From: Desulfobacterales bacterium
GTDB taxonomy: Bacteria; Desulfobacterota; Desulfobacteria; Desulfobacterales; JBGLNM01
DNA: 64,000 nt
Reading direction: 5' to 3'
NCBI GenBank assembly: GCA_041299705.1
Contig: JBGLNM010000001.1
Coordinates: 3,814 to 67,813 of the forward strand
Part shown: piece after piece, positions 948 through 63,644 of the stretch
How the letters are laid out: every line of letters starts with the position of its first letter
How positions within the stretch are numbered: the stretch's first letter is position 1
Program-made: the position numbers and the translations under genes
The notes under the pieces: model-generated
Databases searched by the model: none
The model's input: only the letters and a program-made list of their open reading frames with translations
Told to the model about the DNA's origin: nothing

Positions 948-2992
948 TCACCGGGTGCCGGTCGCGGGGGTGCCGCCTTCCGGGCGCGCGTCTCCCGCCG
1001 CCGGCGAGCGGCGCGACAGGCGCAGGCTGTTGCCGATCACGGTCAGGCTGCTCAGGAGCATGGCGCAGACGGCCACCAGAGGGGTGAGCAGGCCGCTCAT
1101 GGCGATGGGGATGCTGAGCGCGTTGTAGACGAAGGCGCACCCCAGGTTCTGGCGGATGTTGCGGTTGACGCGCTCGGCCAGGTCGAGGAATTCGGGGACC
1201 TGGCCCGGGTCCGCGCGCATGAGGGTGATGTCGGCGGTCTCCCGCGGACCGCGCCAGGGCCGGTGCGTCGTTGACGCCGTCTCCCACCATGGCCACGCGC
1301 GAGCCCCCTGCCTGCCAGTCGGCGACGAAAGCCGCCTTTTCGGCGGGGAGCAGGCCGCCGCGGGCGGCGTCGACGGCGAGGCGCGAGCCGAGGGCGCGGG
1401 TCACCCCCTCCCCGTCGCCGGAGACCAGCGCGAGGCGGTAGCCGCGGGCCGCCAACGCTCAGGTAGACCTGGGAGGTGGTCCCGTCGCCGTCCGCCGGCG
1501 CCTCTCCCCAGGCCCGGCGGTCGTCTGCGGCCAGCTCCCCGGCCACGAAGGTTTCCGCCCCGATTTTGACCCTCCGGCCCCCGTGAACGGCCGAAATCCC
1601 GTTGGCGTGCACCCGGCGGTCGCCAAGCGCCAGGGGGGCGATGCCGCGGCGCAGCGCTTCCCCGCGGATCAGGGCGGACACGGGATGATCCGCCTCCCGT
1701 TCCAGCCCGGCCGCCAGGGCGAGGGCCTGTTCCTCGGAAAGGGGGCCCCGGAGGCGGATGCGGCGCAGGTGCCAGCGCCCCTCGGTCAGCGTCCCGGTCT
1801 TGTCGAAGACGAAGGCCTGGATGTCGGCGGCCCGCTCGAAGGCCGCGAAGTCCCTCACCACCACCCCGCTTCTGGCGGCGACGGAGATGCCGGCCACCCG
1901 GGACATGGGGATGGCGATTCCCAGGGAGCACGGGCAGGCGATCACCAGGACCGTGACAGCGCGCATCAGGGCGCCCTCGAAGGGCAGGCCCCGGATCAGG
2001 CAGACGCCCCCGGTGGCCGCGGCGAGCAGGACGATGGCCGGCACGAAGCCCCTGAGAAGGCGGTCGGTGCGGCCTTCGACGGGCGTTTTGGCGCCGAGGG
2101 CGCGCTCCATGACCGCCACCATCTGCCCCAGCACGGAATCCGCCCCCACCGCCTCGGCCCTCGCCCTGACGCTGCCCGACAGAACCCGGGTGCCGCTGCG
2201 GATGCGATCGGGCGCCTGCATGGGGATCGGCACGGCCTCGCCCGTCAGGGATGACGCGTCCACGCGGCAGCGGCCGGAGAGGACGACGCCGTCGGCGGGG
2301 ACGATTTCCCCCTCCCGGACGATGAAAAGATCCCCCGCCGCCAGCTGTCCGGCCGACACGTAGCGCCCCTGCGGAAACTCCCGGGTGCAGACCCTGGCCT
2401 TGGCGGGCCGCAGGGAGAAGAAGCCGGCAAGGTCGTCGCGCACCCGGTCCCTGGCCTTTCCCTCCAGGGTCTTGCCCACCAGGACCAGGGTGATGAGCAT
2501 GGAAGCCGTGTCGAAGTAGAGATGAATGCCGCCCCGCATGAAATTGACCGTACTGTAGAGATAGGCGGCCGTGGCGCCGATGGAGATGAGGGTCTCCATT
2601 CCGGGGGCCGCCGATGCGAGGCCGGCCCATGCCTTTTTGTGGATCGCGGCGCCGCCGTAGAAGAAGACCACGCCGGCCAGGGTGAAGATCGGCCAGGAAA
2701 TTCTGCGGATCGTCTCGGCGTCGAGGCGGCTCAAGAACCCTGAATAGAGGGCGAAGGAGAGCATCATGACGTTTGCGGTCAGGACCGCGGAGACGGCCAA
2801 CCGCAGCAGCTCGCGCCTCCTGGACTTGTCGGCGGCCCCGCGGCCGGGGATCGACGCGCGGTAGCCGAGGCCTGCCAGGACGGGGACCATCCGGTCGGGA
2901 GAGGTGTGAACCGGGTCGTAGGTGCAGCGCACCCGGTCGGTGGAAAAATTGCACGCGGCCGCGACGACCCCCTCCTGCCTGAGCAGCGCCAA
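948..2992 (-). pseudogene. P1B-type heavy-metal P-type ATPase, N-terminally truncated and broken into three reading frames
   Basis: Contains CPC (VIACPCSLG), DKTGT (FDKTGTLTEG), MVGDGVNDAPALA and a terminal TM region. The frame changes near 1457 and 1245, with about 25 and about 13 expected residues missing. The HMA domain lacks its CxxC half, and the ORF abuts the hldE stop codon. Confidence 0.85.
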
Positions 2993-4438
2993 TCACCCGT
3001 TGCGGATGCTGTTGATGATGCCGGTCGAGGACATGCCGCCCGAGGCCGGGATCAGCACCACCCGCCCGCCGAACTGTTCCACCAGCCCCCGGCCCGAGAC
3101 CTCCTCGGATCGATAGTTGTCCCCCTTGGTGAGGACATCGGGGCGGATCGTGCGGATCAGGTCGTCCAGACGGTCGGAGGGGAACACCACCACGTAGTCG
3201 ACCGAGTCCAGGGCGCTGAGGACCTGGACCCGCTCCCGGGCGCGGATCACCGGGCGGCCGGGGCCCTTCAGGCGCCGGACCGACGGGTCGTCGTCGATGG
3301 CCACGATGAGGATGTCCCCGAGGGCCTTGGAGGCGGAAAAGAGCCCGATGTGGCCGGGGTGGATCAGGTCGAAGCACCCGTTGGTCATCACGATGCGCTT
3401 GCCGCCCTGGCGCAGTTCGGGGATCAGCGCCGGCAGCTCGGCGAGGTCGCGGTACTTGTCCGCCCGCGGGGGGCGGTTCGGGTCGGCGGCGGCTTTCAGT
3501 TCGGCTGCGGAGACGGTCGCCGTGCCGACCTTGCCCACAACGATGCCGGCGGCGGTGTTGGCCAGCACGGCGCTCTCGACCAGGCTCGCGCCGCTGCAGA
3601 TGCACAGCCCCAGCACGGCCAGGACCGTGTCGCCGGCCCCGGAGACGTCGTAGACCTGGCGCGCCTCGGTGCGGATGCGGTGGGGGGCGCGCCCCGGCTC
3701 GAAAAGGACCATGCCCTCCGGCCCGCACGTGACGAGCAGGTTGCCGACGCCGGAGGTTTCCAGGAGGCGGGCGCCGGCGGCGAAGAGGGAGGCATCGTCG
3801 ACGATGTCCACCCCGGCGGCCAGGGACGCCTCCTGCAGGTTGGGGGTCACCAGGCAGGCGCCGGCATAGCGGGTGAAGTCGAGGCCCTTGGGGTCGACGA
3901 TGAGGGGCTTGGCGCCCGCCCGGGCCCAGGCGATCAGGTCGGCCATCAGTTCGCGGGTGATGAGGCCCTTGCCGTAGTCGGACACCAGGACGGCGCCGAC
4001 CCCGGGGATGATCTGCCTGGCGGCCCGTCCCAGGGCCTCGCGCGTGGCGCCGGAGATCTCCTTGCGGGTTTCGCGGTCGATGCGCAGGACGTGCTGGCTC
4101 TCGGCGATGATCCGGGTCTTGCGGGTGGTGGGGCGGCCCGGCTCCCGTATGAGCCCGCGGGTGTCCACCCCCAGCTGGGCGAAGCGCTGCAGGAGCAGGC
4201 CCGCGTTGGGGCCGGTCCCGGTCACGCCGGCCACCGACACCGCGGCCCCCAGGGCGACCAGGTTGTTGACGACATTGCCGGCCCCCCCCAGGGTGAAGCT
4301 CTCGCTGCCGACGGTGACCACCTGCACCGGGGCTTCGGGGGAGATGCGGTCGACCCTGCCCCACAGGTACTCGTCGATCATCAGGTCGCCCACCACCAGG
4401 AGCCGGCAGGCCTTGAACGTGTCGATGTCGGGGATCAT
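2993..4438 (-). CDS. hldE: Bifunctional D-beta-D-heptose 7-phosphate kinase / D-beta-D-heptose 1-phosphate adenylyltransferase
   Basis: 481 aa. N-terminal ribokinase-like domain plus a C-terminal cytidylyltransferase-like domain (MTNGCFDLIHPGHI). Confidence 0.93.
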   Translation of the reverse strand: MIPDIDTFKACRLLVVGDLMIDEYLWGRVDRISPEAPVQVVTVGSESFTLGGAGNVVNNLVALGAAVSVAGVTGTGPNAGLLLQRFAQLGVDTRGLIREPGRPTTRKTRIIAESQHVLRIDRETRKEISGATREALGRAARQIIPGVGAVLVSDYGKGLITRELMADLIAWARAGAKPLIVDPKGLDFTRYAGACLVTPNLQEASLAAGVDIVDDASLFAAGARLLETSGVGNLLVTCGPEGMVLFEPGRAPHRIRTEARQVYDVSGAGDTVLAVLGLCICSGASLVESAVLANTAAGIVVGKVGTATVSAAELKAAADPNRPPRADKYRDLAELPALIPELRQGGKRIVMTNGCFDLIHPGHIGLFSASKALGDILIVAIDDDPSVRRLKGPGRPVIRARERVQVLSALDSVDYVVVFPSDRLDDLIRTIRPDVLTKGDNYRSEEVSGRGLVEQFGGRVVLIPASGGMSSTGIINSIRNG

Positions 4439-4845
4439 GACGCCAATTTTTCCCGGATCAGCTCCCGCAGGTAGGCCGGGGGCCGCACCACGCGCCCGGA
4501 CCCGCTCAGGCAGGCGTGCCGGGTGCAGCCGTTCGCCACGGCCCTGCCGTCCCCTTCGCTCGAAATCCGGTAGTCGAACTTCATGCCGGCGCGCATGGCC
4601 GGGTCCAGGGTCGTTTCGATGACCAGCAGTTCGTCGTAGCGCGCCGGCGAAAGGTATTTGCAGTGGGCCTCGGACACCGGGAGGAAGATCCCCCGGGCCT
4701 CGATCTCCCTGTAGGCCAGGCCGAGGTCGCGGAACATCTCCGTCCGGCCGATCTCGAACCAGCGCAGGTAGTTGGCGTAGTAAGCGACGCCCATGTTGTC
4801 CGTGTCCCCGTAGATGACGCGGTAGGTGGTGCGGTGGGGGTTCAT
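4435..4845 (-). CDS. YbgC/4HBT-family acyl-CoA thioesterase (hotdog fold)
   Basis: 136 aa. YGDTDNMGVAYYANYLRWFE motif. ATGA overlap with the hldE start. Confidence 0.85.
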   Translation of the reverse strand: MNPHRTTYRVIYGDTDNMGVAYYANYLRWFEIGRTEMFRDLGLAYREIEARGIFLPVSEAHCKYLSPARYDELLVIETTLDPAMRAGMKFDYRISSEGDGRAVANGCTRHACLSGSGRVVRPPAYLRELIREKLAS

Positions 4846-4865
4846 TCCAGATGCTCCGATGCCGA

Positions 4866-4888
4866 CCCCGATTTCGATTTCGATTTGG
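4866..4888. repeat. Short period-6 tract (CGATTT)n
   Basis: ccccgatttcgatttcgatttgg, in the intergenic gap between the thrH stop and the thioesterase start. Confidence 0.6.
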
Positions 4889-4934
4889 AAGCGTTCATCC
4901 GCCTCCGCATCCCCCGACGGGCCCGGGAGTCAGC

Positions 4935-5546
4935 CTATGCCTGAGCCCCCAGTTCCCTCTCCACGATTTCCCTCAGCTCGTCGTAGGTGACGGCCACGGG
5001 CAGCCCAGGGTATTCCGCGACGATGTTGGGCGGCGGGCGGAAAAGGACCCCGCTGTCGGCCTCCTGGAGCATGGCGATGTCGTTGTAGGAGTCGCCCACG
5101 GCGACGACCCGGTAGTAGAGGCTTTTGAGGGCCACCACGGCCATGCGCTTGCCGCTGTTCTGGCGCATGCGGTAGCCGCTCACGGCGCCGTCCGGGGCCA
5201 CGGTGAGCTCGTTGCAGAAGAGGGTCGGCCAGCCGAGCTTTTTCATCAGCGGGCCGGCGAACTGGACGAAGGTGTCGGAAAGGATGATGACCTGGGTCCG
5301 CTCCCGCATCCAGTCGATGAACTCCCGGGCCCCCTCCAGGGGATCCATGCGGGCGATGACGTCGGTGATGTCCCTGAGCTTCAACCCGTGTTTCTCCAGA
5401 ATCGACAGGCGCCGGCGCATCAGCACATCGTAGTCGGAGATGTCCCGGGTGGTCAGCCTGAGTTCGGCGATGCCGGTGCGCTCCGCCACGTTGATCCAGA
5501 TTTCCGGTACGAACACGCCTTCCAGGTCGAAACAAATGACGTGCAT
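4935..5546 (-). CDS. thrH: ThrH-type phosphoserine phosphatase / homoserine phosphotransferase (HAD family)
   Basis: 203 aa starting [20 protein letters not shown] motifs present. Sits next to hom, as for ThrH in Pseudomonas (from memory). Confidence 0.75.
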
Positions 5547-5667
5547 GCTGCTCCTTTCGTGCAGGAGTGACTATGGTGAGCTAAAGTGACTAAAATGCCT
5601 AAAGTTGCGGTGTCGCTTCGCTCCGTCTGGATGTGATCGTCCGCTCACTTTTGGGCACGCATTAACC

Positions 5668-6984
5668 TCAGTCGCTGCCGTTCTCGTCTTCGATGCGGAT
5701 CAGCATCGGTTTTTCGGTGACCACGTTGAGCTGCAGCATTTCGGCCATGGCCTCCCGGACCTTGGCCTCCGACGTCTGGTGGGTGAGCATGATCAGCGGC
5801 ACCGAGCCCTCGGACTTGCGCCCCTTCTGGTGAACCGATTTGAGGCTGATGCCGTAATTGCCCAGGATGCCGGAGATCTTGGAGAGCACGCCGGGGCGGT
5901 CCAGGGCGGAAAAGCGGAAATAGTAGTGGCTGTGGATCTTCTCCATGGGCAGGACCGGCAGCCTGCGGATGCGGTCCGGCTGGTAGGAGAGCAGGGGCAC
6001 CCGGCCCGGGGAGCCGCACATCAGGTTGCGGGCGATGTCCACCAGGTCGGCGATGACGGCGCTGGCGGTGGGCATCCGGCCGGCCCCGCGGCCGCAGAGC
6101 AGGATGTCGTCCACGGCGTCGCCGTTGATGGCCAGGGCATTCAGGGGGCCGTTGACGCTCGACAGGATGTTGTCCATGGGGATCATGGTGGGGTGGACCC
6201 GCGCTTCCACCGCATCCCCGTCGTCCTTGCTGATGGCCAGGAGCTTGATCCGGTAGCCGAACTGGGCCGCGGCCTCGATGTCCAGGGGCGTGACCCTGGA
6301 AATGCCCTCGATGTAGATGTCCTCGAAATCGATCTCCATGCCGTAGGCCAGGGCGCAGAGGATGGCGAGCTTGTGGGCCGTGTCGTACCCCTCCACGTCC
6401 AGGGTCGGGTCGGCCTCCGCGAACCCGCTGGCCTGGGCCTGGGACAGGGCCTGTTCGAAGGGGATGCGCTCGTCGCTGATCTTGGAAAGGATGTAATTGC
6501 AGGTCCCGTTGAGGATGCCGGTCACGGACCGGATGCGGTTGCCCACCAGGGCCTCGCGCAGGGTCTTGATCACCGGCATGCAGCCGCCCACGCTGGCTTC
6601 GAAGGCCAGGTCGACGCCCTTGTCGCGCTCCGCGCCGTAGATGCGGTTGCCTTGGTGCGCCAGCAGGGCGTTGTTGGCGGTGACGACCTGCTTGCCGTTG
6701 TCGATGGCTCGAAGGATGAGCTCCCGGGCGATGCCCTCGCCGCCGATCATTTCCACGACGATGTCGATGCCGGGGTCGTCGACCACCCGGCGGGCGTCGC
6801 TGGTGAAGACCCCGTCCTCGAAAACGATGCCGCGGTCCGTGGCGGTGTCGATGTCGGCGACCGCCCTCAGGCGCAGCGAGGCCCCCAGCCGGGATTGGAT
6901 GATGTCAGCGCTCTCGATGAGCATCCTGGCGACCCCGGTCCCCACCGTGCCGCAGCCGAGCAAACCGACGTTGATCTCTCGCAT
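5668..6984 (-). CDS. hom: Homoserine dehydrogenase
   Basis: 438 aa. N-terminal GLLGCGTVGTGV NAD(P) fold, catalytic domain and a C-terminal ACT domain. Confidence 0.95.
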   Translation of the reverse strand: MREINVGLLGCGTVGTGVARMLIESADIIQSRLGASLRLRAVADIDTATDRGIVFEDGVFTSDARRVVDDPGIDIVVEMIGGEGIARELILRAIDNGKQVVTANNALLAHQGNRIYGAERDKGVDLAFEASVGGCMPVIKTLREALVGNRIRSVTGILNGTCNYILSKISDERIPFEQALSQAQASGFAEADPTLDVEGYDTAHKLAILCALAYGMEIDFEDIYIEGISRVTPLDIEAAAQFGYRIKLLAISKDDGDAVEARVHPTMIPMDNILSSVNGPLNALAINGDAVDDILLCGRGAGRMPTASAVIADLVDIARNLMCGSPGRVPLLSYQPDRIRRLPVLPMEKIHSHYYFRFSALDRPGVLSKISGILGNYGISLKSVHQKGRKSEGSVPLIMLTHQTSEAKVREAMAEMLQLNVVTEKPMLIRIEDENGSD

Positions 6985-6985
6985 G

Positions 6986-7002
6986 GTGTGCTCTTCCGAT
7001 CT
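6986..7002 (+). other. Illumina TruSeq adapter remnant (GTGTGCTCTTCCGATCT)
   Basis: Exact 17-nt match to the 3' end of the read-2 adapter. It lies 1 nt from the hom start codon and 4 nt from the cbbQ-like stop codon. Confidence 0.9.
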
Positions 7003-7006
7003 CCCA

Positions 7007-7852
7007 TCAGAAAATCCCGGCCACGATTTCGGCGATGGCCGTCTGCATCTCCGCGTCGTCGGACATGGCCCGGATCACCGCCACATCGCAGGCCACCGCC
7101 GGCTTGACGCCGCTTTCCATCAGTTTGGCGGCATAGACCAGCAGCCGGGTGCTGATGCCCTCTTCCAGCCCGTGCTGGCGGAGGTTGCGGACCATCTCCC
7201 CCAGGCGCACCAGGCGTTCGGCCAGTGATGGGTCCACCCCGCTTTCCCTGACGATGATCGCCAGCTCCTTTTCGGCCGACGGATAGGTGAAATCCAGGGC
7301 CACGAAACGCTGGCGCGTCGAGTGCTTGAGGTCTTTCATGACGCTCTGATAGCCGGGGTTGTAGGAGATCACGAGGTGGAAATCCGGGTGACACTCCAGC
7401 AGAAGGCCGCGTTTCTCCTGGGGCAGGATGCGGCGGTCGTCGGTCAGCGGGTGTATCACCACGGTGGTGTCCTTGCGCGCTTCCACGACCTCGTCCAGGT
7501 AACAGATGGCCCCGTGTCTGACCGCCAGGCTCAGGGGGCCGTCCTGCCAGACTGTTTCGTCCCCCTTGAGGAGGTAGCGGCCCACGAGGTCGGAGGCCGT
7601 CAGGTCCTCGTGGCAGGCGATGGTCACCAGCGGCCGGCCGATCCGCCAGGCCATGTGCTCCAGGAAACGCGTCTTCCCGCAGCCGGTGGGCCCCTTGAGC
7701 ATCACGGGCAGCTTCAGGCGGTAGGCGAACTCGAACACCTCGATCTCTTCGCCGGTGGGCAGGTAGTGGGGTTCGGCGGCGATGCGGTAATTTTCGATGG
7801 CCACGCCGTTGGGCGCTTTGAGGCCGTCGGGCCCGTCTCCAGGGTGGTGCAT
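7007..7852 (-). CDS. CbbQ/NirQ/NorQ-family AAA+ (MoxR-like) ATPase
   Basis: 281 aa. Walker A GPTGCGKT, Walker B ICYLDEV, and a CbbQ-type C-terminal region. Confidence 0.88.
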
Positions 7853-7954
7853 GTGCGGCTCCTTGCAATGGTTGCGCTCATCCCGAACAGCCCGCGGGCC
7901 GGAAAGCGGTCTGCCGGCCCGCGGGTGTGCGCCGGGTGAACCCGGAGGATTTCC

Positions 7955-8995
7955 TTAGTACTTGCCGTAAAGCTCGGCCGCTTCCATCATGGCGATGGCG
8001 TTCATCAGCGACCCGTTGGGCGGGAACTCGCACCCGGTGGCCAGGATGAACCGCCCGCCCGCGGCCAGTTCCCCGATCTCCTTCTTGCACTCCTGCTTCA
8101 TCTCCTCGGGGCTCCCCAGGAAGGCGTACTGCGCCGGGCTGGTGTAGCCGATGATCGTCACCTTGTCGCCCCACTTCTTCTTGGTCTCCACCCAGTCGGC
8201 GCAGTCATCCGGCGGGTAGGCGCAGGAGATGGCGATGGGGTCCATGGTCTCGATCTGGGCGTCGAAATAGAGGCCGTTGCCGCAGTTGTGCACGATGACC
8301 ATCATGCCGTTGGCGCGCGTGGCCTCGGCCAGCTCCTTGGCGAAGGGGCCTTCGATTTCCCGCCACATCTCCTTGCGCATGATGGTCTGGGAGGCGAACA
8401 GGGTGTCCAGGACGATGGCGTGGCAGCCGGTCTTGGCGATGGCCTTGATGTAGTCCACCAGCACCCCGTTGATGACCTTCTGCGCGTGGATGACCGCTTC
8501 CTTGTGCTTGTAGCAGTCCCGGAAGAGGTTTTCGGCCCCGCGCATCATGGACAGGATCCCCAGGGGGCCGTAGACGAACCCCATGATGGCGGTGGTGGCC
8601 GCCTTCTCGTTGCAGACGATGTCGTAGTATTTCAGGGACTCCTTCATCCGCGGCCCCTTGGTGGGGTCCAGCGGCTGGATCTTGTAGTAGTCGTCCGGTG
8701 TCCGGATGAAGGGGTCGTCGTAGTCGGGGTGGGCCGTGTCCTCGATGGGAAACACCATCTTCTGCCCGAAATCGGCGGCTTCCACCGACAGGTCCACCAG
8801 CCCCAGGATGCCGTCGTAGCCGATGAGGTTGTGGGCCTGGATCTGGGATTTGGCCATCAGCTCCCCGTCCCGCGACCATTCCTCGTAGGTCACCCCGTAC
8901 ACCCTCCGGGAAGCGCCGCAGACCAGCGGGCCCGCGGGCACCCGGTCCGGGATGCCGCCTTGCAAAACCGTCGCCACTCTTTCCAATCCGTTCAT
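7955..8995 (-). CDS. Uroporphyrinogen-decarboxylase-family protein, MtaA/MT2-methyltransferase-like
   Basis: URO-D fold over the full length. HxC...C pattern (IVHNCGN ... ATGCEFP). I prefer the ATG at 8995 (RBS AAAGGAGA) over the ORF-track start at 9019. Confidence 0.8.
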   Translation of the reverse strand: MNGLERVATVLQGGIPDRVPAGPLVCGASRRVYGVTYEEWSRDGELMAKSQIQAHNLIGYDGILGLVDLSVEAADFGQKMVFPIEDTAHPDYDDPFIRTPDDYYKIQPLDPTKGPRMKESLKYYDIVCNEKAATTAIMGFVYGPLGILSMMRGAENLFRDCYKHKEAVIHAQKVINGVLVDYIKAIAKTGCHAIVLDTLFASQTIMRKEMWREIEGPFAKELAEATRANGMMVIVHNCGNGLYFDAQIETMDPIAISCAYPPDDCADWVETKKKWGDKVTIIGYTSPAQYAFLGSPEEMKQECKKEIGELAAGGRFILATGCEFPPNGSLMNAIAMMEAAELYGKY

Positions 8996-9080
8996 CTGAT
9001 GTCTCCTTTGGTTGGGCATGCCCTGCCGGGCACGCCGATGGACGTGAACACCCCTGTTCGGGCGGGAACCCTTGGGGGCC

Positions 9081-9671
9081 TCAGGTGATGAGGGCCGCCA
9101 ACCGGTCCACCCCGGCTCCGTTGACAGCGCTCAACCGGAAGACCTCGGGGTGCAGCGTCCCCAGGGTCTCCCGGACACGGGCTTCCATTTCGGCATCGAC
9201 CCGGTCGGCCCGGCCGATGCCCACCACGTCGGCCCCCCGGACCTGCCCCGTGATGAGGCGGCCGCGCTCGGCCCACAGAAAATCGAAGTGCGGGCCGTCC
9301 ACCAGGGTGACCAGCGGGCCGATCTCGTAGGAAACGTCCCGCCGGCCCATGGCGCACACCTGGCGCATTTCGGCGGTGACCACCATCTCCGACGGCTCGA
9401 CAAAGAGTACGTCCGGGGCGTGGCGCCGCCTGATCGTTTTGATCCGGTCCACCAGACTGGTCGCCAGTGAACAACCGACTCAGCCCCCCCGCAGGTACTG
9501 GATCGGCACCTCCCCCCCGGCAACACCCGGGATCTCGTCGTAGGTCGCCTTCCCCTGCTCGTTGACGATCACCGCGCAGCGCCTCCCCGCGGCCGACAAC
9601 CGGGTCACCAGCCGGCCGATGAGGGTCGTCTTGCCGCTGCCGCGGGTGCCGGACACGCTGACCAGGCGCAC
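9081..9671 (-). CDS. CobW/COG0523-like G3E P-loop GTPase with an in-frame UGA (putative selenocysteine) at 9480-9482
   Basis: GTG at 9671 preceded by GGAGGAGG. P-loop GTRGSGKTT. The two ORF-track pieces (9480..10037 and 9081..9452) share one frame. The TGA aligns with the first Cys of CICC in the paralogue at 10194-10808. Confidence 0.7.
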
Positions 9672-9673
9672 CT

Positions 9674-10189
9674 CTAGTCCTCCTCCCGGAAATCTTCCTC
9701 CTGCAGCTGGGCCTGGAGCTGCTTGAGGTAGTCCTGCTTGGAGGCGACGAAGTCGAACTCGTCGAAATAGGTGTGCTCTTTCTCCTTGACCACCGAAAGG
9801 CCGAGGTTCTGGGCCACTTCGTGGAGGCCTTCGAGGGTGGCCGCCTTGACGGCATGCTCCGGGATGCCCTGGACGATGCTGTTGACCGCGATGGTGACGT
9901 CCCGGACCGGGTGGCTCACGTGGCCGGTCGAAAACACGCCGTGGGCCGTTCCGATGGTGTCGGCCTTGAGGGTCCCGGCCGGGGTGTTGAGGTGCGACTT
10001 GATGTGGCCGATGCAGCGTGCGCCCAGTTCCATGCATTTTTGGGCGATGGCCGTCATCATGTTTTCGGCCATGGTCTTGAGAAACGCCTCGTTCATGGCC
10101 TCTTTGCGGCTCAGCTTGGCGGCCACGCCGTACCCGCTGACGCCGTGCTCGGTGTAACAGCCGACTTGCCGGCCGGTGTCCCCTGCCAT
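9674..10189 (-). CDS. Hypothetical 171-aa protein with His-rich stretches, sandwiched between the two G3E GTPase genes
   Basis: Clean ORF with normal composition. Contains GHIKSH, TAHG and TGHVSHP segments and an acidic C-terminus. I recognise no family. Confidence 0.6.
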   Translation of the reverse strand: MAGDTGRQVGCYTEHGVSGYGVAAKLSRKEAMNEAFLKTMAENMMTAIAQKCMELGARCIGHIKSHLNTPAGTLKADTIGTAHGVFSTGHVSHPVRDVTIAVNSIVQGIPEHAVKAATLEGLHEVAQNLGLSVVKEKEHTYFDEFDFVASKQDYLKQLQAQLQEEDFREED

Positions 10190-10193
10190 CGGG

Positions 10194-10808
10194 CTATCCC
10201 TCCCATGCCTGGATCATTTCCACCAGGCGGTCGATGCCGATGTCCGCGAAGGTGGACAGGTTCACGATTTCCGCGACGGCGTTGTACTGCCTCACCCTGG
10301 ATGCCGACTCGGCGACCGCGTTTTCGTCCACGGCGTCGATCTTGCTGATAGCGATGATGTCGGCATCCTTGACCTGGGTGGTCACCAGCTGCCCCAGCAT
10401 GTCCATGTCCAGCAGCTCCGCCGGGCGGGTGGCGTCGAAGAGCACGACGGCCGGGCCGAGGGTGAGCTTGGCATCCCGGCCGCCCATGCGCGCGGCAAGC
10501 TTGACCTGGTGCGGAACGGCCACCCCGGTCGGCTCCACCAGGACGTGATCCGGCGAGAAGTCCTTGTAGAGGCGGTAGATCGTCTTTGCGAAGGTCGCCG
10601 CCACCTCGCAGCAGATGCAGCCGCCGCCGATGTCCTTGACCAGAAGGCCGCTTTCCTCGATGACCTTGCCGTCGACGGGGATTTCCCCGATCTCGTTGAC
10701 CACCAGAGCCACCTTCTGCCGGCCGCCCCCGGCCAGGCGGCGCGACAGCTGCAGCAGGAGGGTCGTCTTGCCGCAGCCGAGGAAACCGGCGATTTGGGTG
10801 ATTTTCAT
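10194..10808 (-). CDS. CobW/COG0523-like G3E P-loop GTPase (short form, no CobW_C domain)
   Basis: ATG at 10808 with RBS GGAGGAG. P-loop GFLGCGKTT. GGGCICCE metal motif. 204 aa. Confidence 0.85.
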   Translation of the reverse strand: MKITQIAGFLGCGKTTLLLQLSRRLAGGGRQKVALVVNEIGEIPVDGKVIEESGLLVKDIGGGCICCEVAATFAKTIYRLYKDFSPDHVLVEPTGVAVPHQVKLAARMGGRDAKLTLGPAVVLFDATRPAELLDMDMLGQLVTTQVKDADIIAISKIDAVDENAVAESASRVRQYNAVAEIVNLSTFADIGIDRLVEMIQAWEG

Positions 10809-10894
10809 TTCTCCTCCAGGTAGGGTGCCTTGCGGCGGCGCTTCCCGCAACGGCCGCAGGGTCTCATGCCGGCCGCGGGATGTAAATGCAGGCT

Positions 10895-10929
10895 TTCGGG
10901 TATTTAGCGGGTATGCGGGCATACCCGAA
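10895..10929. promoter_or_regulatory. Nested palindrome, candidate operator upstream of the G3E operon
   Basis: TTCGGGTAT-TTAGC-GGGTATGC-GG-GCATACCCGAA. It lies about 90-120 nt upstream of the start at 10808. Confidence 0.3.
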
Positions 10930-10983
10930 TAGGCGCAGAGAAAGGAGAAGCAAAAACAGCCGTTGCCGTCAATGCCGGCTCGA

Positions 10984-11033
10984 TCGTTGTCGTGGTCGTA
11001 ATCGTTGTCGTAATCGGTATCCTGATCCTGGAT
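10984..11033. repeat. Period-6 tract (GTTGTC/GTAATC type)
   Basis: tcgttgtcgtggtcgtaatcgttgtcgtaatcggtatcctgatcctgg. It is the reverse complement of the tract type at 11213-11288. Confidence 0.7.
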
Positions 11034-11212
11034 GTCCGCGCACCCGTCACCCCCCACGCCGCCCGTCATCGGCCTGATTGCGCTCCCAGACACCCCGGAC
11101 GCACAAAACAAGGCGCAACCCTCCCTGCTCGTTCCCGACTGCAGGGGGCCGCTCCCTTTCTCCCGAGGAAGACTGGGGATCGGTCAGCGACATCAATTTA
11201 TTTGATGGATAG

Positions 11213-11288
11213 GATTACGACTACGATTACGATTACGATTACGATTACGACAACGAGAACGACAACGAGAACGACAACGACATCGATG
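11213..11288. repeat. Period-6 tract (GATTAC/GACAAC/GAGAAC type)
   Basis: gattacgactacgattacgattacgattacgattacgacaacgagaacgacaacgagaacgacaacgacatcgatgg. Confidence 0.8.
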
Positions 11289-11299
11289 GAGGCAGGGAT

Positions 11300-12094
11300 T
11301 CAGATGGAAAAATGGCCGCGCACCCGGTCGAAGAGCCTGTCGACCCGGGAGGCAAAGGGCAGGTCGCCGTCCGCGAGGGCCTGCCGGGCCACCTGCCCCA
11401 GAAGCGCGCGGTCGTGAGGGAGAAGGTAGGGGTGGCAGCGGTCCCAGAAGGAGACCAACTCGGGCGAGAGGCCCGACTGCTGCAGCAGGTGGAGCGGGAG
11501 GAAGGCTTCACACTTCTGGCACAGGTAAAGCCCCCGCACCCAGTCGTGCGGCTGCAGGCGGTCGTAGTCCTGCGCGTCGCCGAGTGTTCTTTCCAGCTGG
11601 TGAAAGTGGTAGACCACCTGGGGCCCGCCCCGCCCCAGGTCGAGGATCATCCGCGTCGCCGCCTGGAGCTGAAGCGCTTTTTCCAGGTGCCAGACCATCT
11701 GGCGCACAACGGCGATGGCGGACCCGCTGAGGTTGAGGGAGGACTGGATCTTCCTTCGGAAGTTGAAGGCGAAGGCGTCGCCGCGAAGATCCAGGCTGAA
11801 GAGGGCCAGTTCCAGGTCCACGGCGGCCTGCAGGGCGGCCGGGGGGGCATCGGCGAGGCCATCGGCGCAGACGTGAAGCACCAGGCCGCTGTTTTGCCTG
11901 CGGCCGAAAAGGAGGCAGGCGGGGCGCCGTTCCGGGCGGGGGTCGGGGAAGCCGTCCCGGGAATGGAAGCGCAGCTTCACAACGGTGCCGAGGGACGGGT
12001 CGACCTCCTCGAAAAAGGAGGCGATCCACGCGGCGCAATTTTTCGCAAGGGCGGTTTCGGCCGCCTGGTCGTTTCGAGGGTCGGCTGGGGGCAT
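11300..12094 (-). CDS. Hypothetical protein (264 aa from the ATG at 12094). The 5' end may be truncated.
   Basis: This is the C-terminal third of the 735-aa ORF-track entry. It has normal composition (..QMVWHLEKALQLQAATRMILDL..LYLCQKCEAFLPLHLL..), whereas the upstream part is antisense to resB. No family recognised. Confidence 0.5.
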   Translation of the reverse strand: MPPADPRNDQAAETALAKNCAAWIASFFEEVDPSLGTVVKLRFHSRDGFPDPRPERRPACLLFGRRQNSGLVLHVCADGLADAPPAALQAAVDLELALFSLDLRGDAFAFNFRRKIQSSLNLSGSAIAVVRQMVWHLEKALQLQAATRMILDLGRGGPQVVYHFHQLERTLGDAQDYDRLQPHDWVRGLYLCQKCEAFLPLHLLQQSGLSPELVSFWDRCHPYLLPHDRALLGQVARQALADGDLPFASRVDRLFDRVRGHFSI

Positions 12095-13447
12095 GTCATC
12101 CGTGAGGGACTTGGTGACAGGGCTCGCGGCGGGTCCTCCGTCAGGCTGACCGTCGTCCTGCTCCTCGGCCTGGCGCTGACGTCGATGATCGGGACCCTGA
12201 TCCCCCAGAACCAGTCCCCGGCGGAATATGTCCGCGCCTATGGGGAATTCCTCTATCGCCTGTTCTCCGTCCTCAACGTGTTCGACATGTACCATTCCTG
12301 GTGGTTCCGCTTCCTGATGATCCTGCTGGCCACCAACATCATCGTCTGCTCCGTCGAGCGCCTCTCGGCCACCTGGCGGGTCATCTTCCCCGCGGCGCCG
12401 AAGTTTTCCGCCGCCCGCTTCCGCAAGCCGGCCGGCGGGCCCGGCTGGGAGGACAACCGCCCTCCCGATGAGCTCGCCGACCTGTGCCGACCGGTCGTCG
12501 CCGGCCATTTCGGCACCGTGCGCGTGGAGCCCTGCGGCCGCGGCGCGTGCATTTTCGGGGAGCGGCGACGGTGGTCGCGGATCGGCGTCTACGTGGTCCA
12601 CTTCAGCGTGGTGCTGCTTCTGGCGGGGGGCCTGATCGGCTCCTTTTTCGGGTACGAGGGTTTCGTCAACATCCCGGAGGGCGAGGCCCGGGACCGGGTC
12701 TTCCTGCGCAACAGCCGCCAGTCGATCCAGCTCGGCTTCCAGATCCGCTGCGACGATTTCGACGTCAGCTTCTACGAGGGCGGGGCCCCGAAGGAGTACC
12801 GCTCCCGCCTGACCATCCTCGAGGCGGGCGGGCCGATACTGCAGAAGGATATCATCGTCAACGACCCCCTTTCCCACCGGGGCGTCCGCATCTACCAGTC
12901 CAGCTACGGCACCCTGCCGGGAAACGAATTCGTCCTGAGCCTGACCAGCCGCGAAACCGGGATGATTTACACCCAGCCGGCGGTCCTCGGCCAGAAGGTC
13001 GTCATCCCGGAGAATCTGGGCACCCTGGTGATCGAGGAATACCGCGAAGAGGCCCAGTTCCAGGGCCACGCCGTCGGAGAGGCCTTTGTCGGGACCCTGA
13101 CCCCCGGCGGCGCCGAACCGGTGCCCATCATCCTGCCCCTGCGCTTCCCCGGCTTCGACCAGATGCGCAAGGGCGAAGTGGTCGTCGCCGTCGCCGAGTA
13201 CACGCCCCGCTATTACACCGGCCTCCAGGTGGCGCGGGATCCGGGGGTGTGGGTGGTTTACGCCGGATTCGTCCTCATGATCCTGGGGTGCGTGATCACC
13301 TTCTTCATGCCCCACCAGCAGGTCTGCGTCGAGCTGGCGCCCGCCGGCTCCGGCAGCCGGGTCCGGGTGACCGGCAGGGCGCCCAAAGGCCAGGTGGCGA
13401 TGGACCTTAAAATTCAACGCATTGCGGAAAAGCTCCGCAGGCTCTGA
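12093..13447 (+). CDS. resB: ResB/Ccs1 cytochrome c biogenesis protein (system II). N-terminus unresolved: 1-nt frameshift or 5' truncation.
   Basis: SSVRLTVVLLLGLALTSMIGTLIPQ onward is typical ResB. No in-frame ATG, GTG or TTG lies close upstream. The ATG at 12093 is in another frame that stops after 18 codons. Confidence 0.75.
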
Positions 13448-15259: not shown

Positions 15260-15350
15260 CGCGGGGGCTGTTGGGCCCGTCCCAGCCCGACAGCGCAGCT
15301 CCCCGGAACGCCCGATGACACGAATCCGCACCATTACAGGGGAACGATCA

Positions 15351-16190
15351 ATGAAGATTGACAGGAGAAGCTTTTTGTCGCGGCTTCTGGAACGTTCGGT
15401 GAAGGGCGCCCGCCGCCTCAGGCCTTTTTCGTCCCCTTCGCGCAACACCCATTTTGCCGCCGCGGTCATCGGCGCCGGCCAGGCCGCGGTTCACAGCGCC
15501 CAGACCCTGGCGCAGGCGGGCATGGACGTGTTCTGGTTCTCCGGGGGCGCGGCGCCTCCGGCGGCGCTGGAGCGCCATGCCAATGTCCACTGGTTCCGGG
15601 GCGCAACGGTGCGCCGGGTCAGCGGCACCCTGGGCGATTTCGTCCTGTCCGTGGAAACCGACACCCTGACCCAGGAAATCCGCGTCGGTGCGGTCATCAT
15701 GGGGGAAACCTCCCGCCGCGGCATCGACTATGTGCACCAGCAGGGACTCCCCGGCCGCCGGATCTCGGGCGCCATGCAGGCCCGGGGTGTCACCGGCATT
15801 CCTTTTTTCTACCCCGGCATGACATCGGTTTCCGGCCTGTTCCTCGCCGACCCGCCCGGCATTTCCATCTCCAGCCGGCAGAAAGGCGAGGCCGCGGCCG
15901 TTCTGGCCGCCGCGGTCATGCCCAGGGGACCCCGTCAGAGCAAGGGTCATACCGTGGTGGTGGACAAAAACGTCTGCCGGGGCTGCGGACGCTGCGTGGA
16001 TGTCTGCCCCTACCACGCGGTGAGCCTGCTGCCCAACGGCACGGGCGGCTGGCACGCGGCGGTGGACGAGGCCTTCTGTAAAGGCTGCGGCAACTGCATA
16101 TCGGTATGCCCCTCCAACGCCGCGGACAGCCCCTACCGCAGCCAGGTGTTTTTCGAGCGCATGCTGGAGGACATTCTGATGCCGGCGTGA
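15351..16190 (+). CDS. HdrA-related flavoprotein-like protein with a C-terminal 2x[4Fe-4S] ferredoxin domain
   Basis: ATG at 15351. AVIGAGQAAV dinucleotide-type motif. CRGCGRCVDVCP and CKGCGNCISVCP motifs. Confidence 0.6.
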   Translation: MKIDRRSFLSRLLERSVKGARRLRPFSSPSRNTHFAAAVIGAGQAAVHSAQTLAQAGMDVFWFSGGAAPPAALERHANVHWFRGATVRRVSGTLGDFVLSVETDTLTQEIRVGAVIMGETSRRGIDYVHQQGLPGRRISGAMQARGVTGIPFFYPGMTSVSGLFLADPPGISISSRQKGEAAAVLAAAVMPRGPRQSKGHTVVVDKNVCRGCGRCVDVCPYHAVSLLPNGTGGWHAAVDEAFCKGCGNCISVCPSNAADSPYRSQVFFERMLEDILMPA

Positions 16191-20699: not shown

Positions 20700-20918
20700 C
20701 CGGCACACCCCGTCCACGAGGCCGGCGGCGACCACTTTTTTCCAGAGACCGGCCATGGGGTTCGCCGGTTCGACCATCTCCGGGATCAGCTTCGTGGCCG
20801 CCCCCTCCACGACGATCCTGCCCCCCAATCCCCTGGCGTGCAGGTCGAGGGCGTTGAGCAGGACGTGGACGAAGCACATGGGGTCACCGTTGTAGACGAA
20901 AAGGGCCAGTTTCGGCAT
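20700..20918 (-). pseudogene. 5' fragment of a DsrE/DsrF-like small protein gene
   Basis: MPKLALFVYNGDPMCFVHVLLNALDLHARGLGGRIVVEGAATKLIPE...AAGLVDGVCRA, then homology stops. ATG at 20918, 2 nt after the ferredoxin stop codon. The family call is from memory. Confidence 0.5.
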
Positions 20919-22890: not shown

Positions 22891-23445
22891 ATGAAACACC
22901 TCAGCGTCAAAAAGGGACACTCGCCCAGGATCGCCGGGGAACCGTCCCCGGCGCTGGACGCCTTGCCCCGGCCGGAGCGGGTGGCGCTGCTGCCCCGGAG
23001 GATGGCCCACCTGAAGCCGCGGCTCCTGGTGGAAACGGGCCAGCGGGTCGCCCTCGGGGCACCCCTGATCGAGGACAGGCGGCACCCGGACGTGCGCGTC
23101 ATGTCTCCGGGCGGCGGCACCGTGGAGGCGATCGATTTCGGTCCCCGGCGGGTGATCGCCCGCATCGTCATCCGCCTCGACGAGGAAGAGGAGCGGGTGG
23201 CCCGGGACCCGATGGGCGCGGCGGACCTTGGGCGCATGCCGCGGGGGGAAGTGGTCCGCAGGCTCGTCGCGGCCGGCCTGTGGCCTTTCCTGAAAGCTTT
23301 GCCGTTCCGCGATTACCCCCCCGAGGAGAGCGTTCCGCCGGCCATCCACGTCAGCCTGGGAAGCCTGGAACCCTTTCAGCCGGCCCCGGAAGTCTACCTG
23401 GACGGCAAGGGGGAGCTTTTCGCCTTCGGCCTGGCGGTTCTCGAA
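22891..23445 (+). pseudogene. 5' fragment (~185 codons) of an NqrA-like gene (Na+-translocating NADH:quinone reductase subunit A family)
   Basis: [19 protein letters not shown]...[37 protein letters not shown] resembles the NqrA N-terminus. Homology ends where the truncated uvrB arrives on the other strand. Confidence 0.65.
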
Positions 23446-26910: not shown

Positions 26911-28470
26911 ATGGATATTTACGAAATGATAACGCGTGCGCTTGCCGCCGGCCGCAAGACGCTCAGCGAGTACGATTCCAAGCGGATATTGCGCGCTTAC
27001 GGCATCCCGGCCGTGGAGGAAACCGTGGCGCAGGACGCGGAGGCCGCCGCCGCCGCCGCGGCCCGGATCGGGTATCCCGTCGTCCTCAAGGCCCTGGGGG
27101 CCTCCCTGGCCCACAAAAGCGAAATGGGCCTGGTCCGGCTCAACCTGGCGGACGGCGCCGCCGTCAGGGAGGCGGCCGCGGCGGTGGCGTCAGCGGCCGG
27201 CGACGCCTTGGAGGGCTTCCTGGTGCAGCCTTACGTGGCCGGGAACCGCGAGTTCGTGGCCGGCATGTTCAGGGACGCACTGTTCGGGCCGGTGGTGATG
27301 TTCGGCATCGGCGGCGTTTTCACCGAGGCCCTTTCCGACGTCTGTTTCCGCGCGGCGCCCATCGAAGCGGCGGATGCCGAGGAAATGCTCGCAGAGGTCA
27401 AGACCTCGGCCCTGCTGAAAAATTTCAGGGGGCAGCTCGCCGCCGACCGCGGCGCCCTGGTCCGGACCCTCACCGGGCTTTCCCGCCTGGCGATGGAACA
27501 GGAATGCATCGCCGAAGTCGACGTCAACCCTCTGCTGGTCACCCCCCGGGGAAGCGTGCTGGCCGTGGACGCCCTGGTGGCGCTCAAAGCGCCGGCAGCC
27601 GATACCCCTCCCCTGCCGCCGGTGGAGCCTTCCGCCATCGGCGCCCTCTTTTACCCGAAGTCCATCGCCTTTGTCGGGGCCTCCTCGGAAATGGGCAAAT
27701 GGGGCCACTCCCTGCTGTGCAACACCATCAGCGGAGGTTATGGCGGGCAGATCTACCTGGTCAACCCCAAAGGCGGCACCATCGCCGGACGGCCCGTGTA
27801 CGCGACCGTCGCCGACATCCCCGGGAAAGTCGACCTGGCCGTGATCACCATCCCGGCCGCCAAGGTCATGGACCTGGTGCCGCAGTTCGAGAAAAAGGGG
27901 ATCCGCAACATGCTCCTGATCACCTCCGGGTTCAGCGAAACCGGCTCCGAAGGACGGGATCTGGAAAACCGCCTCGTGGCGGCCGCGCGCGAGGCCCGGA
28001 TACTGATCCTCGGCCCCAACACCATGGGCATCTGCAACCCCCACGCCCGGCTCAACTGCACCAGCCTGCCGGCCAACCCCATGGCCGGCGACACGACGGT
28101 CATTTCCCAGTCCGGCAACATGGGGACCCAGCTGATGGCCTTCGCCGCGGCCCAGGGCATCGGCATCCGGGGGTTCTGCGGATCGGGCAACGAAGCCATG
28201 ATGACCATCGAGGACTACCTCGACGGCCTGGAGGAAGACCCCCTGACCCGCACGGTCATGCTGTATGTGGAAAGCGCCAAGAACGGCCGCCGCTTTTTCG
28301 AGAGCGCGCGCCGCCTGAGCCGCAAGAAGCCCATCGTCCTCCTGAAGGGCGGCCGCAGCAAGGAAGGCAACCGGGCGGCCGCCAGCCACACCGGCGCGCT
28401 CTCCTCGGACGCGCGCATTTTCAGCGCGGTCTGCCGCCAGGCCGGCATCGTCGAGGTGGAGCAGCCCATG
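26911..28470 (+). pseudogene. ADP-forming acetyl-CoA synthetase / acetate-CoA ligase family gene, 3'-truncated
   Basis: ATP-grasp domain followed by CoA-binding and CoA-ligase domains (FVGASSEMGKWG, SQSGNMG, CGSGNEA). Similarity ends at ..IVEVEQPM, and the last ~15 codons of the ORF are antisense to the next gene. Confidence 0.8.
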
Positions 28471-31783: not shown

Positions 31784-31793
31784 CTTCCGATCT
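31784..31793 (+). other. Probable Illumina adapter remnant (CTTCCGATCT)
   Basis: 10-nt match to the adapter 3' end, exactly where two convergent genes are both cut off. Confidence 0.6.
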
Positions 31794-34088: not shown

Positions 34089-34203
<115 letters not shown>

Positions 34204-35384: not shown

Positions 35385-35454
35385 GGGCTGTCGTTTGCGG
35401 TTTTGCTTGACATGACGGGCGATGACGAATAATTACAGCGGACGGATCGATCGG

Positions 35455-37021
35455 TGATCCGTCGCGGCGCCCCCACCCCCAGCCGGCGCCGGAAAAGACC
35501 CTGGAGCCTGTGGCAGGAGAGGAAGGGGTCGAGGTCGAACCCCAGTTCGATGGTCCTCACCTTGCCCTCGGGCGCGATCCGGTAGCCCTCGGTCAGCTCC
35601 ATTTTCTGGCTGCCGCTGATGGCGACGACCACGTCGGTGATGCGCGCCAGCAGCCTTTCGATCCAGACGAAGAGCATGCTCTTGGACCAGGAGAAATAGC
35701 CCTTGAAGGCGTGGCCGTGGAAGGTGTGCACCGTGACGATGCGGCGGCCGTGGAGCAGCTCGTGGATCATGACGGCCAGGCGCGCGCTGGTGCCGGCCTT
35801 GGCGGTGTGGGTGTGGACGATGTCGGGCTCGACGCGGCGGATGATGGCGAAGATCCGGAAAAAGGACTTCAGGTCGCGGCTCAGGCTGATTTCGCGCTGC
35901 AGTTCGGGGACGGGGATGGGCCGGACGTCGCCGTCCTGGAAGAGATAGCTCATGTCCCCCTCCTGGGGGGAAATTTTCCCGGTGACCAGGTAGGACTCGA
36001 AACGCCGCCGGTCGAGGCCGTTGGTCAGCAGGTGGGCGTGGATGGCGGGCCCGCCGATGTTGAGCCGCGCGATCAGCCGCAGAACCCGGATCCGGCGCCC
36101 GGCCGGGGCCGCGCCCTCCCCCTCCCCGGCCAGGAGCTGGCCCAGGGCGCCGCGACGGCGCTCGAACCAGCGGATCACGGTGCCGGAAAAGAGGACCAGG
36201 CAGAAGCGGATGTAAAGCCCGATGCTCACCAGGGACCACAGGAGGTGGTGCCTGGGCTTGGCGTACTTCTTGAACAGGCTGAAGCTGCTCTTGTGAAACT
36301 CGTAGGCCGAGCGCGTGATGAGCTTTTCGCTGCTCACGCCGACGAAGTGCACCACCGCCGGCCTGGGGAAATAGACCACCTCCCAGCCCCCAAGCCACAT
36401 GCGCCGGCACCAGTCGGCGTCTTCCCAGTACATGAAGAAGCGCTCGTCGAACAGGCCGACCTCTTGGATGGCCGCGCGCCGCACGACCATGCAGGCCCCC
36501 GAGACCCAGTCCACCCGCATGGGGGACCGGCCGTCGGACTGGAGGCTGAGAAGGTTGCGGGTCGTGACCGGGTTTTTGGGAAACCAGCGCGACATGATGG
36601 AGGAGCGGCCGAAAAGGGCCGTCAGGGGGGTCGGGAAGGCCCGCGCCGAGTTCTGCAGGCGGCCGTTCTCCTCCAGGATCCGCGGCCCCATGACGGCCAC
36701 CCGGGGATTTTCCTGCATGAAGCGGATGGACTCCCGGAAAAAGCCTTTCCTCACGTAACTGTCGGGGTTGAGCAGGACCACGTACTCCCCCCGGGACGCC
36801 CTCAGGGCCTGGTTGACGGCCCTCCCGAAACCGAGGTTTTCCCGGTTGCGGGTCAGGACCGCCCGCGGGAACTCGGCCATGGCCTCCCCGATGTGGTCCC
36901 GGGAATCGTTGTCCTGGACGAGGACCCGGGCCTGGAGGCCATCCAGGTCCGCGTAGACGGACCTGAGGCAGCGCACGAGATAGTCGGTGCTCCGGTAGTT
37001 GACGATGATAATATCGATCAT
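35455..37021 (-). pseudogene. Glycosyltransferase fusion (GT2 domain, TM segment, GT4-type N-terminal half). The C-terminal GT4 half is missing.
   Basis: MIDIIIVNYRSTDYL.. GT2 core. IRVLRLIARLNIGGPAIHA..DIVHTHTAKAG.. GT4 N-domain. Similarity ends near ..RRRLGVGA, after which the ORF runs into AT-richer non-coding sequence behind serC. Confidence 0.7.
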
Positions 37022-37810: not shown

Positions 37811-37855
37811 GATACGATTACGACAACGATTACGACAACGACAACGATGGTTACG
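37811..37855. repeat. Period-6 tract (GATTAC/GACAAC type)
   Basis: gatacgattacgacaacgattacgacaacgacaacgatggttacg. It contains CGATTACGACAACGA, the exact complement of TCGTTGTCGTAATCG found three times in 37036-37325. Confidence 0.8.
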
Positions 37856-38705: not shown

Positions 38706-38764
38706 GATATCGGGCCCTTCACGTTTCCAGGGGAATCGAGCAGGATCGTCGGCTCGGCGTAAAG

Positions 38765-42547: not shown

Positions 42548-42699
42548 AGTGTCTCCAATTGAATCGGGGGTGGCTTGTGACGGGGTGTTTAAAGTTATCT
42601 TTTTCGCAAGCTAAGCATTCTGTCTTCACCTCACCAGAATACACATCAAGCGACTCATCGCCCTGTTCCAGGCTAACCGCAGCCAAATTACCGAATGCC

Positions 42700-45209
<2,510 letters not shown>

Positions 45210-45419
45210 TTCCCGGTCCGGCTCGCGGACGAAAACCCCGAAACGCCGGCCCGAGAGCCGGGCGCGCTCCACCCCCAGCAGGCGCGCCCCGGCCAGGTTC
45301 GACCGGCGGATCGCCCCGTCGCGGCCGAGGGTCAAGTAGCCCATCGGGGCAAAATCGTAGAGTTCCGTGTAGCGCTCCAGCCCCGCCTCCACCTCCGCCC
45401 GCGACCGGCGCAGCTTCAT
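45210..45419 (-). pseudogene. ~70-codon internal fragment of a PAS-domain sensor gene, fused in frame to the rpoC fragment
   Basis: ..[66 protein letters not shown] is a typical coiled-coil and PAS start with no kinase or output part. Confidence 0.65.
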
Positions 45420-60920: not shown

Positions 60921-60921
60921 C

Positions 60922-63626: not shown

Positions 63627-63644
63627 CGTGTGCTCTTCCGATCT
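63627..63644 (+). other. Illumina TruSeq adapter remnant (CGTGTGCTCTTCCGATCT)
   Basis: Exact 18-nt match to the read-2 adapter 3' end, at the ligase/nifS-like boundary. Confidence 0.9.

Follow-up and report, generated by a model that had tools for sequence, protein, structure and literature searches.

A TruSeq adapter remnant between hom and a cbbQ-like gene lies at one of at least 13 blunt joins in a 64-kb Desulfobacterales sequence

Introduction

The closest described counterpart of the feature reported here is adapter read-through at contig termini, the class of contamination for which UniVec, VecScreen and NCBI FCS-adaptor screen. The sequence we find is the same (the 3' end of GTGACTGGAGTTCAGACGTGTGCTCTTCCGATCT) and so is the geometry: the adapter sits at the end of a piece and faces into it, which holds for 121 of 125 control copies as well. 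What differs is that the contig end is hidden inside a longer sequence and that the next contig follows without a spacer. At 10-17 nt, stubs of this kind probably fall below the internal-match thresholds that routine adapter screens usually apply.

A second point of comparison is offered by chimeric contigs and misassemblies in metagenome-assembled genomes (MAGs). Here too, unrelated loci of one genome are juxtaposed, genes are cut within domains and a false fusion open reading frame (ORF) arises (15315-16190). In contrast to sporadic chimeras of this kind, at least 13 joins in 64 kb, pieces of uniform size, at least about 2.6 kb, and the coincidence of the joins with contig ends of other assemblies point to whole contigs laid end to end.

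The genes on one side of the junction belong to a further known system, the module formed by CbbQ/NorQ (a MoxR-type AAA+ protein) and CbbO/NorD (a VWA protein). The protein studied here carries the corresponding AAA_5 and CbbQ_C domains, and its partner is native in two sister contigs (L001 and L002 below). Unlike in the described module, the partner is cut off, and the upstream neighbours are URO-D-like and cobW genes instead of RuBisCO or nitric-oxide-reductase genes.

The window, that is, the whole stretch of DNA analysed, comprises 64,000 nt of a contig assigned to a Desulfobacterales bacterium (GCA_041299705.1, JBGLNM010000001.1, positions 3,814 to 67,813 of the forward strand). All coordinates refer to the window unless a contig is named.

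Results

Adapter sequence between hom and a cbbQ-like gene

The initial annotation had read a 17-mer between the start codon of hom (6984) and the stop codon of a cbbQ-like gene (7007) as a remnant of an Illumina adapter. The 17-mer was recovered at this place as an exact match and both genes were verified.

6986..7002, + strand: 17-nt TruSeq read-2 (P7-side) adapter remnant, exact match, at the left terminus of segment 6986-12134

The + strand at 6986-7002 reads GTGTGCTCTTCCGATCT, identical to the 3' end of the adapter at 17 of 17 nt, and fills most of the 22-nt gap that separates the start codon of hom from the stop codon of the cbbQ-like gene. The a-priori expectation for an exact copy is about 7e-6 in 128 kb of two-stranded sequence; allowing up to two mismatches, the window contains two matches against a mean of 0.01 in dinucleotide-preserving shuffles.

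As a control set we used 120 unrelated public IMG/VR contigs, in which the 17-mer occurs 125 times. It grows to the full 34-mer GTGACTGGAGTTCAGACGTGTGCTCTTCCGATCT in 61 of the 125 occurrences and runs past the contig end in another 56; these copies back the identification of the 17-mer as adapter. Almost all occurrences (121/125, 97%) are within 300 nt of a contig end (median 23 nt) and point inward, and in only one of the 125 did the adapter break off internally at exactly 17 nt, preceded by foreign sequence. By sequence identity, the 17-mer is thus assigned to the last 17 nt of the Illumina TruSeq read-2 adapter, ending in CCGATCT at the insert, and is technical sequence.

Native continuation of the cbbQ-like flank

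The features on the right-hand side of the remnant are as follows.

7003..12134, - strand: segment with cobW genes, URO-D and the cbbQ-like gene, matching contigs L001 and L002
7007-7852, - strand: cbbQ-like gene, TGA at 7007-7009, Pfam AAA_5 and CbbQ_C
7955-9019, - strand: URO-D gene, within segment 7003-12134

The domains of the CbbQ-like protein (AAA_5, E 1.5e-32; CbbQ_C, E 4.6e-31) are those of a MoxR-type AAA+ protein. An exact-protein look-up led to three other contigs, namely L001 (GCA_041311035.1), L002 (GCA_041299755.1) and L003, the last from a Logan assembly of raw run SRR28346254. Positions 12134-7003 are matched by L001 (100% identity) and L002 (99.98%), and the match stops exactly at 7003. 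Across the join, the minus strand of the window reads TTTTCTGATGGG, then AGATCGGAAGAGCACAC (the minus-strand reading of the 17-mer), then CATGCGAGAG. Past 7003, L001 and L002 read TTTTCTGATGGG followed directly by CGCCATCGAGGAATTC, and a new gene opens there at an ATGA overlap with the cbbQ stop; the native continuation is TGATGGG followed by CGCCATCGAGG. Just 5 nt of this gene are left in the window (ATGGG at 7003-7007). L003, whose sequence does not differ from that of the window, also stops at the 17th adapter base (...TGATGGGAGATCGGAAGAGCACAC), so this site is a contig end in a separate assembly too. The raw reads behind L003 hold no more than 17 nt of adapter at 6986-7002.

The gene that opens at this overlap is the VWA partner, whose absence after cbbQ had already been remarked on in the initial annotation. 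The 73-aa fragment that follows cbbQ in L001 is 38% identical over 72 aa (E 1e-15) to the N-terminus of the partner in relatives. For this comparison, 80 metagenomic relatives of the CbbQ-like protein were collected with their flanks (L007-L086, 536 kb). In close relatives, whose CbbQ-like proteins are 75-82% identical, the partner has 753-790 aa, and with the exception of one locus its gene begins 3-42 nt past the stop codon of cbbQ. Of 25 loci examined, 22 have a long same-strand ORF that opens no more than about 190 nt after cbbQ ends, and a Pfam scan found a C-terminal VWA domain in the partner of five close relatives. URO-D lies upstream of cbbQ in 30 of the 80 relatives, and none of the 80 cbbQ loci contains hom, hldE, HAD, 4HBT, ATPase, resB, ccsA or qrcA.

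As a side observation, the cobW-type GTPase genes, the URO-D-like gene, the cbbQ-like gene and the VWA partner make up a conserved cluster seen in the window (7007-11111, - strand) and in the relatives L007-L086; no RuBisCO or nitric-oxide-reductase genes were found near it.

Native continuation of the hom flank

To the left of the remnant, the window contains the following features.

2991..6985, - strand: segment with hom, HAD hydrolase, 4HBT thioesterase and hldE, ending 1 nt upstream of the hom ATG
5668-6984, - strand: hom, start codon 6982-6984, full length, Pfam NAD_binding_3, Homoserine_dh and ACT

A Hom protein (P0001) 99% identical to that of the window led to contig L004 of GCA_041299755.1. 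Positions 6985-2991 of the window correspond to nt 3526-7520 of L004 at 99.875% identity, the match beginning exactly at 6985, and both ends of L004 carry on natively with sequence not found in the window. In L004, hom is preceded by 153 nt of spacer with many CCTTGAA-type repeats, and before that by a class-I/II aminotransferase gene. At the upstream edge of hom its native sequence is GGAAACGCGACATG, with no adapter; the 17 nt have no counterpart in the native sequence of L001, L002 or L004. No cbbQ was found within 3.5 kb upstream of hom in L004, and these 3.5 kb have no match anywhere in the window. A second contig, L005 from JGI metagenome 3300009509, encodes a Hom 82% identical to that of the window and has the gene order of L004 (aminotransferase, 88% identical to that of L004, then spacer, hom and HAD hydrolase), which lends support from a data set that can have no reads in common with the window. 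In GCA_041299755.1 the two genes are on separate contigs, cbbQ on JBFYVB010000031 and hom on JBFYVB010000278.

Judged from the gene order in these contigs, the native orders are URO-D, cbbQ, VWA partner on one side and aminotransferase, hom, HAD on the other; hom and cbbQ are accordingly taken not to be neighbours in the organism and their junction to be non-native, in agreement with the proposal of the initial annotation that the two flanks are not adjacent. Could the genes be truly adjacent, with the adapter having replaced or filled a native spacer through a local gap-fill error? The fact that both flanking genes are intact and that the stub sits exactly in the 22-nt stop-to-start gap speaks for this idea, but L001 and L002 go from 7003 into the VWA-partner gene, L004 and L005 go from the upstream edge of hom (6985) into the spacer and the aminotransferase gene, cbbQ is missing from the 3.5 kb upstream of hom in L004 and hom is found in 0 of the 80 cbbQ loci of relatives. 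We consider true adjacency very improbable. Even less credence, close to none, is given to the 17-mer being native sequence. This explanation finds its sole support in a fortuitous Shine-Dalgarno-like motif, since AGATCGGAAGAGCACAC puts GGAAGAG about 9 nt upstream of the hom ATG, where it resembles a ribosome-binding site. Against it stand the identity to a synthetic adapter (about 7e-6 by chance), the recurrence of adapter sequence at two other gene-truncating breaks in the window, the reading GGAAACGCGACATG in L004 at this place, where the 17-mer is absent, and the finding of this 17-mer at the ends of unrelated viral contigs. The 17-mer is a sequencing and assembly artefact and not a biological feature.

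Further adapter stubs in the window

Adapter sequence is found at two more places, both missed by the initial annotation.

63628..63644, + strand: second exact 17-nt adapter remnant, at the left terminus of the last segment
31784..31793, + strand: third adapter stub, CTTCCGATCT, 9-10 nt, at the left terminus of a segment

To the left of 63628, a paaK-like gene is cut about 48 codons short, its product aligning up to residue 389 of 437 of a solved PaaK. To the right of 63644, a NifS/IscS-type sequence opens, in another frame, at position 247 of the 371 in the Aminotran_5 profile, and the ORF at 62390-63748 is a false read-through from paaK into the adapter. The shorter motif CTTCCGATCT occurs three times in the window against 0.11 expected, and its copy at 31784-31793 coincides with a junction predicted beforehand (around 31787) by coding-frame analysis: to the left of 31784, a Peripla_BP_6 domain breaks off at position 77 of the 343 in its profile, and to the right of 31793 there is a response-regulator gene on the opposite strand without a stop codon. 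Each of the three adapter stubs is on the + strand, where it forms the left end of a segment and points into that segment. The 17-nt length of two of them together with L003 suggests that the reads had been trimmed before deposition by a procedure that does not remove short stubs.

Adapter-free joins

Besides the three stubs, the window contains at least ten joins without adapter. The joins at 2990/2991, 12134/12135 and 15381/15382 were placed to the base by the sister contigs L004, L001, L002 and L006. The other joins were located by a self-trained codon-usage Viterbi track, which gave missing stop and start codons, combined with truncated Pfam profile coordinates; we list these as probable.

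2990..2991: blunt join; past the hldE stop L004 runs through intergenic DNA into a new gene, whereas the window changes to a P-type ATPase ORF
12134..12135: blunt join; L002 stops at 12134, L006 begins at 12135 and L001 departs from the window here
15381..15382: blunt join, 30 nt into a Tat-signal oxidoreductase gene; L006 stays native for 1.4 kb more, the window passes to a FAD/FeS protein
~20704..20705: probable blunt join; of the 245 profile positions of an alpha/beta-hydrolase only 196-245 are left, and the neighbouring gene has no stop codon
~23415..23445: probable blunt join; nqrA is cut at NQRA_2nd position 58/145 and uvrB after about 410 aa, converging, neither with a stop codon
~28464..28465: probable blunt join; an ADP-forming acyl-CoA synthetase-like gene has no stop codon (Succ_CoA_lig cut at 126/138), the minus-strand neighbour also has none
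~35440..35474: probable blunt join; a glycosyltransferase with a complete Glyco_transf_4 half, the catalytic half and the stop codon missing
38714..38760: probable blunt join; rpoB is cut at the 3' end (Rpb2_6 ends at 336/373, Rpb2_7 absent) and a family-2 glycosyltransferase follows instead of rpoC
42560..42700: probable blunt join; the end of an rpoC C-terminal fragment meets the rpoB 5' leader, in the wrong operon order
45190..45210: probable blunt join; rpoC is cut at the 5' end (Rpb1_2 from 90/166 after 64 unrelated residues, Rpb1_1 absent)

At the junction 2990/2991, the P-type ATPase ORF seems, by eye, to open in the distal part of the N-terminal metal-binding domain; Pfam reports no metal-binding domain at this ORF start. 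At 12134/12135, two divergent genes stand head to head without a spacer, resB having no start codon, and the ResB Pfam domain opens at profile position 1 with the third residue past the junction. The join at 15381/15382 creates a false in-frame fusion ORF (15315-16190, + strand) of a qrcB-like Tat signal peptide (MKIDRRSFLS) and an unrelated FAD/4Fe-4S protein, and the 1.4 kb beyond qrcB in L006 match nowhere in the window. The rpoB start codon is intact at 42546. A further candidate join between 53403 and 53609 is unproven. Three Viterbi flags were rejected as joins: at 32413, where hisD is complete, at 60149, where a histidine kinase is complete, and at 55700, where a stop codon follows at 55723. 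Neither overlap nor microhomology was seen at the joins, and no N spacers; a search for k-length exact overlaps between segment ends returned none but short intergenic tandem repeats.

We also noted several features beside the joins. The P-type ATPase gene (823-2992, - strand) changes frame twice, around 1449 and around 1242. Its Hydrolase domain continues over the first shift (profile positions 1-65, then 112-189), and the changes are frameshifts, from a pseudogene or from consensus errors, not joins. At 38714-45200 (- strand), rpoB is immediately preceded by an rpoC fragment that extends from domain 2 to the C-terminus; the two have the same orientation but a swapped order, with about 1.6 kb missing. 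Short tandem repeats are found in intergenic regions or at gene starts (11222-11280, 34107-34193, 37050-37315, 37813-37847 and 60769-60795; 3437-3515 in L004), with 6-nt units (ACGATT or ACGACA) and 7-nt units (CCTTGAA or CCTGAAC), some translating into Asp/Asn-rich sequence; they are plausible places for short-read contigs to break. Rfam and ARAGORN gave a single hit in the window, a tRNA-Val (anticodon CAC; 46152-46226, - strand).

The window as a chain of contigs

The junction between hom and cbbQ, which the initial annotation had treated by itself, is not one chimeric join in an otherwise sound contig but one of at least 13 blunt joins, of which three carry adapter stubs and at least ten are adapter-free. 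Eleven segments are bounded at both ends and measure about 2.6-5.3 kb, not far from the lengths of the contigs in the sister assemblies (4.7-7.8 kb). With random breakpoints at a mean of about 4 kb, all eleven would reach at least about 2.6 kb in roughly 0.1% of cases, with the reservation that short pieces are detected with limited power; a floor of about 2.6 kb is expected under a minimum-contig-length filter. Several contigs end at the joins of the window (L001 at nt 1-24, L002 at nt 1, L006 at nt 1 and L003 at its 3' end). The sister assemblies share these termini with the window to the nucleotide and probably draw on common reads, and are thus not fully independent.

We think it likely that the window consists of short contigs from one fragmented metagenome bin laid end to end without spacers. 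That the pieces belong to one organism or bin follows from GCA_041299755.1, which has three of them as separate contigs. Placement end to end is favoured because L002 and L006 end exactly at 12134 and 12135 and L003 at the adapter base, because the other stubs share the inward, left-end geometry that the IMG/VR control also displays, because at least ten further breaks cut genes in mid-domain (including rpoB, rpoC, uvrB and nqrA) and because the native continuations make biological sense on both sides. At the junction studied here, assembly of contig 6986-12134 would have run off the end of a library insert into the adapter and not into the native VWA-partner gene. This contig would then abut, blunt and without an N spacer, the unrelated contig 2991-6985 of the same bin, which would end by chance 1 nt upstream of the hom start codon. 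The pieces would stand in arbitrary order and orientation, and the stubs would have survived through incomplete read trimming. The end-to-end placement itself could lie in the record of the depositor or in the step that built the window.

Some observations speak against this arrangement. The natural neighbours rpoC and rpoB stand next to each other in swapped order, which is unlikely if the order of the contigs is purely random; two stubs of exactly 17 nt suggest a systematic cause; and there are no N spacers or k-length terminal overlaps at the joins. Two other explanations were weighed. The first is an in-silico misjoin, in which an assembler, scaffolder or gap closer linked dead-end tips, some with untrimmed adapter, without read support, and the result was deposited as one long contig. 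The joins, which are blunt, with no microhomology and no Ns, agree with such a process, and the swap of rpoC and rpoB could come from a scaffolder misreading pair orientation. Scaffolders normally insert Ns, however, and the other adjacent pairs bear no sign of being neighbours, nor does any relative have such synteny. We hold this origin to be unlikely, and in practice it differs from contigs laid end to end only in which software did the joining.

The second explanation places the event in the library: a fragment with the cbbQ end and a partial adapter would have been joined physically to a hom fragment, by ligation or PCR template switching, and the product then assembled. Reads containing CGCATGGTGTGCTCTTCCGATCTCCCATC are predicted if this took place. 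The structure at the junction (insert, truncated adapter, insert) has the expected form, L003 shows that reads with an insert end plus adapter exist in the raw run, and the adapter-free joins could be fragment-to-fragment chimeras. Yet at least 13 chimeric molecules would be needed in 64 kb, each exactly at a coverage dead end. Moreover, no segment is shorter than about 2.6 kb, L003 halts at the adapter and does not read into hom, sister contigs end exactly at the joins, and an internal stop at exactly 17 nt is rare in public contigs (1/125). A library chimera as the cause is, in our judgement, quite improbable. Both the in-silico misjoin and the library chimera fit the density of joins, the size floor and the coincidences with contig ends less well than contigs laid end to end do. 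Two further candidates were rejected, namely restriction-site or proximity-ligation junctions, as the joins have no common motif, and reference-guided scaffolding, as rpoC and rpoB are in the wrong order. A literature search on the run and assembly accessions found no papers. Exact-protein look-ups with Hom and with the radical-SAM protein encoded at 60813-62441 gave no record, and two scans of the contigs of GTDB species representatives, one with the adapter and its right flank and one with a native 46-mer of cbbQ, gave no match.

Discussion

Taking the window as contigs laid end to end, inferences from its gene order are unsafe; this applies to the pairing of hom with cbbQ, to the position of rpoC ahead of rpoB and to the head-to-head arrangement of resB and the cobW cluster. 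The ORFs that a gene caller reports include fusions and truncations, for example 15315-16190 and 62390-63748. It is possible, though doubtful, that a pasted pseudo-contig without gap characters stands in the deposited public record, or else that the adapter-bearing joins are real chimeric library molecules. If such a pseudo-contig is in the public record, false neighbourhoods and fusion proteins, such as the Tat-signal/FeS product of 15315-16190, would enter databases and the models trained on them.

All three stubs in the window mark hidden contig boundaries, and a scan with ...CTTCCGATCT and the complementary sequence may offer an inexpensive means of revealing such boundaries in other sequences. 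Neither a pasted pseudo-contig nor a library chimera would be part of the biology of the organism, and the value of the finding lies in quality control only.
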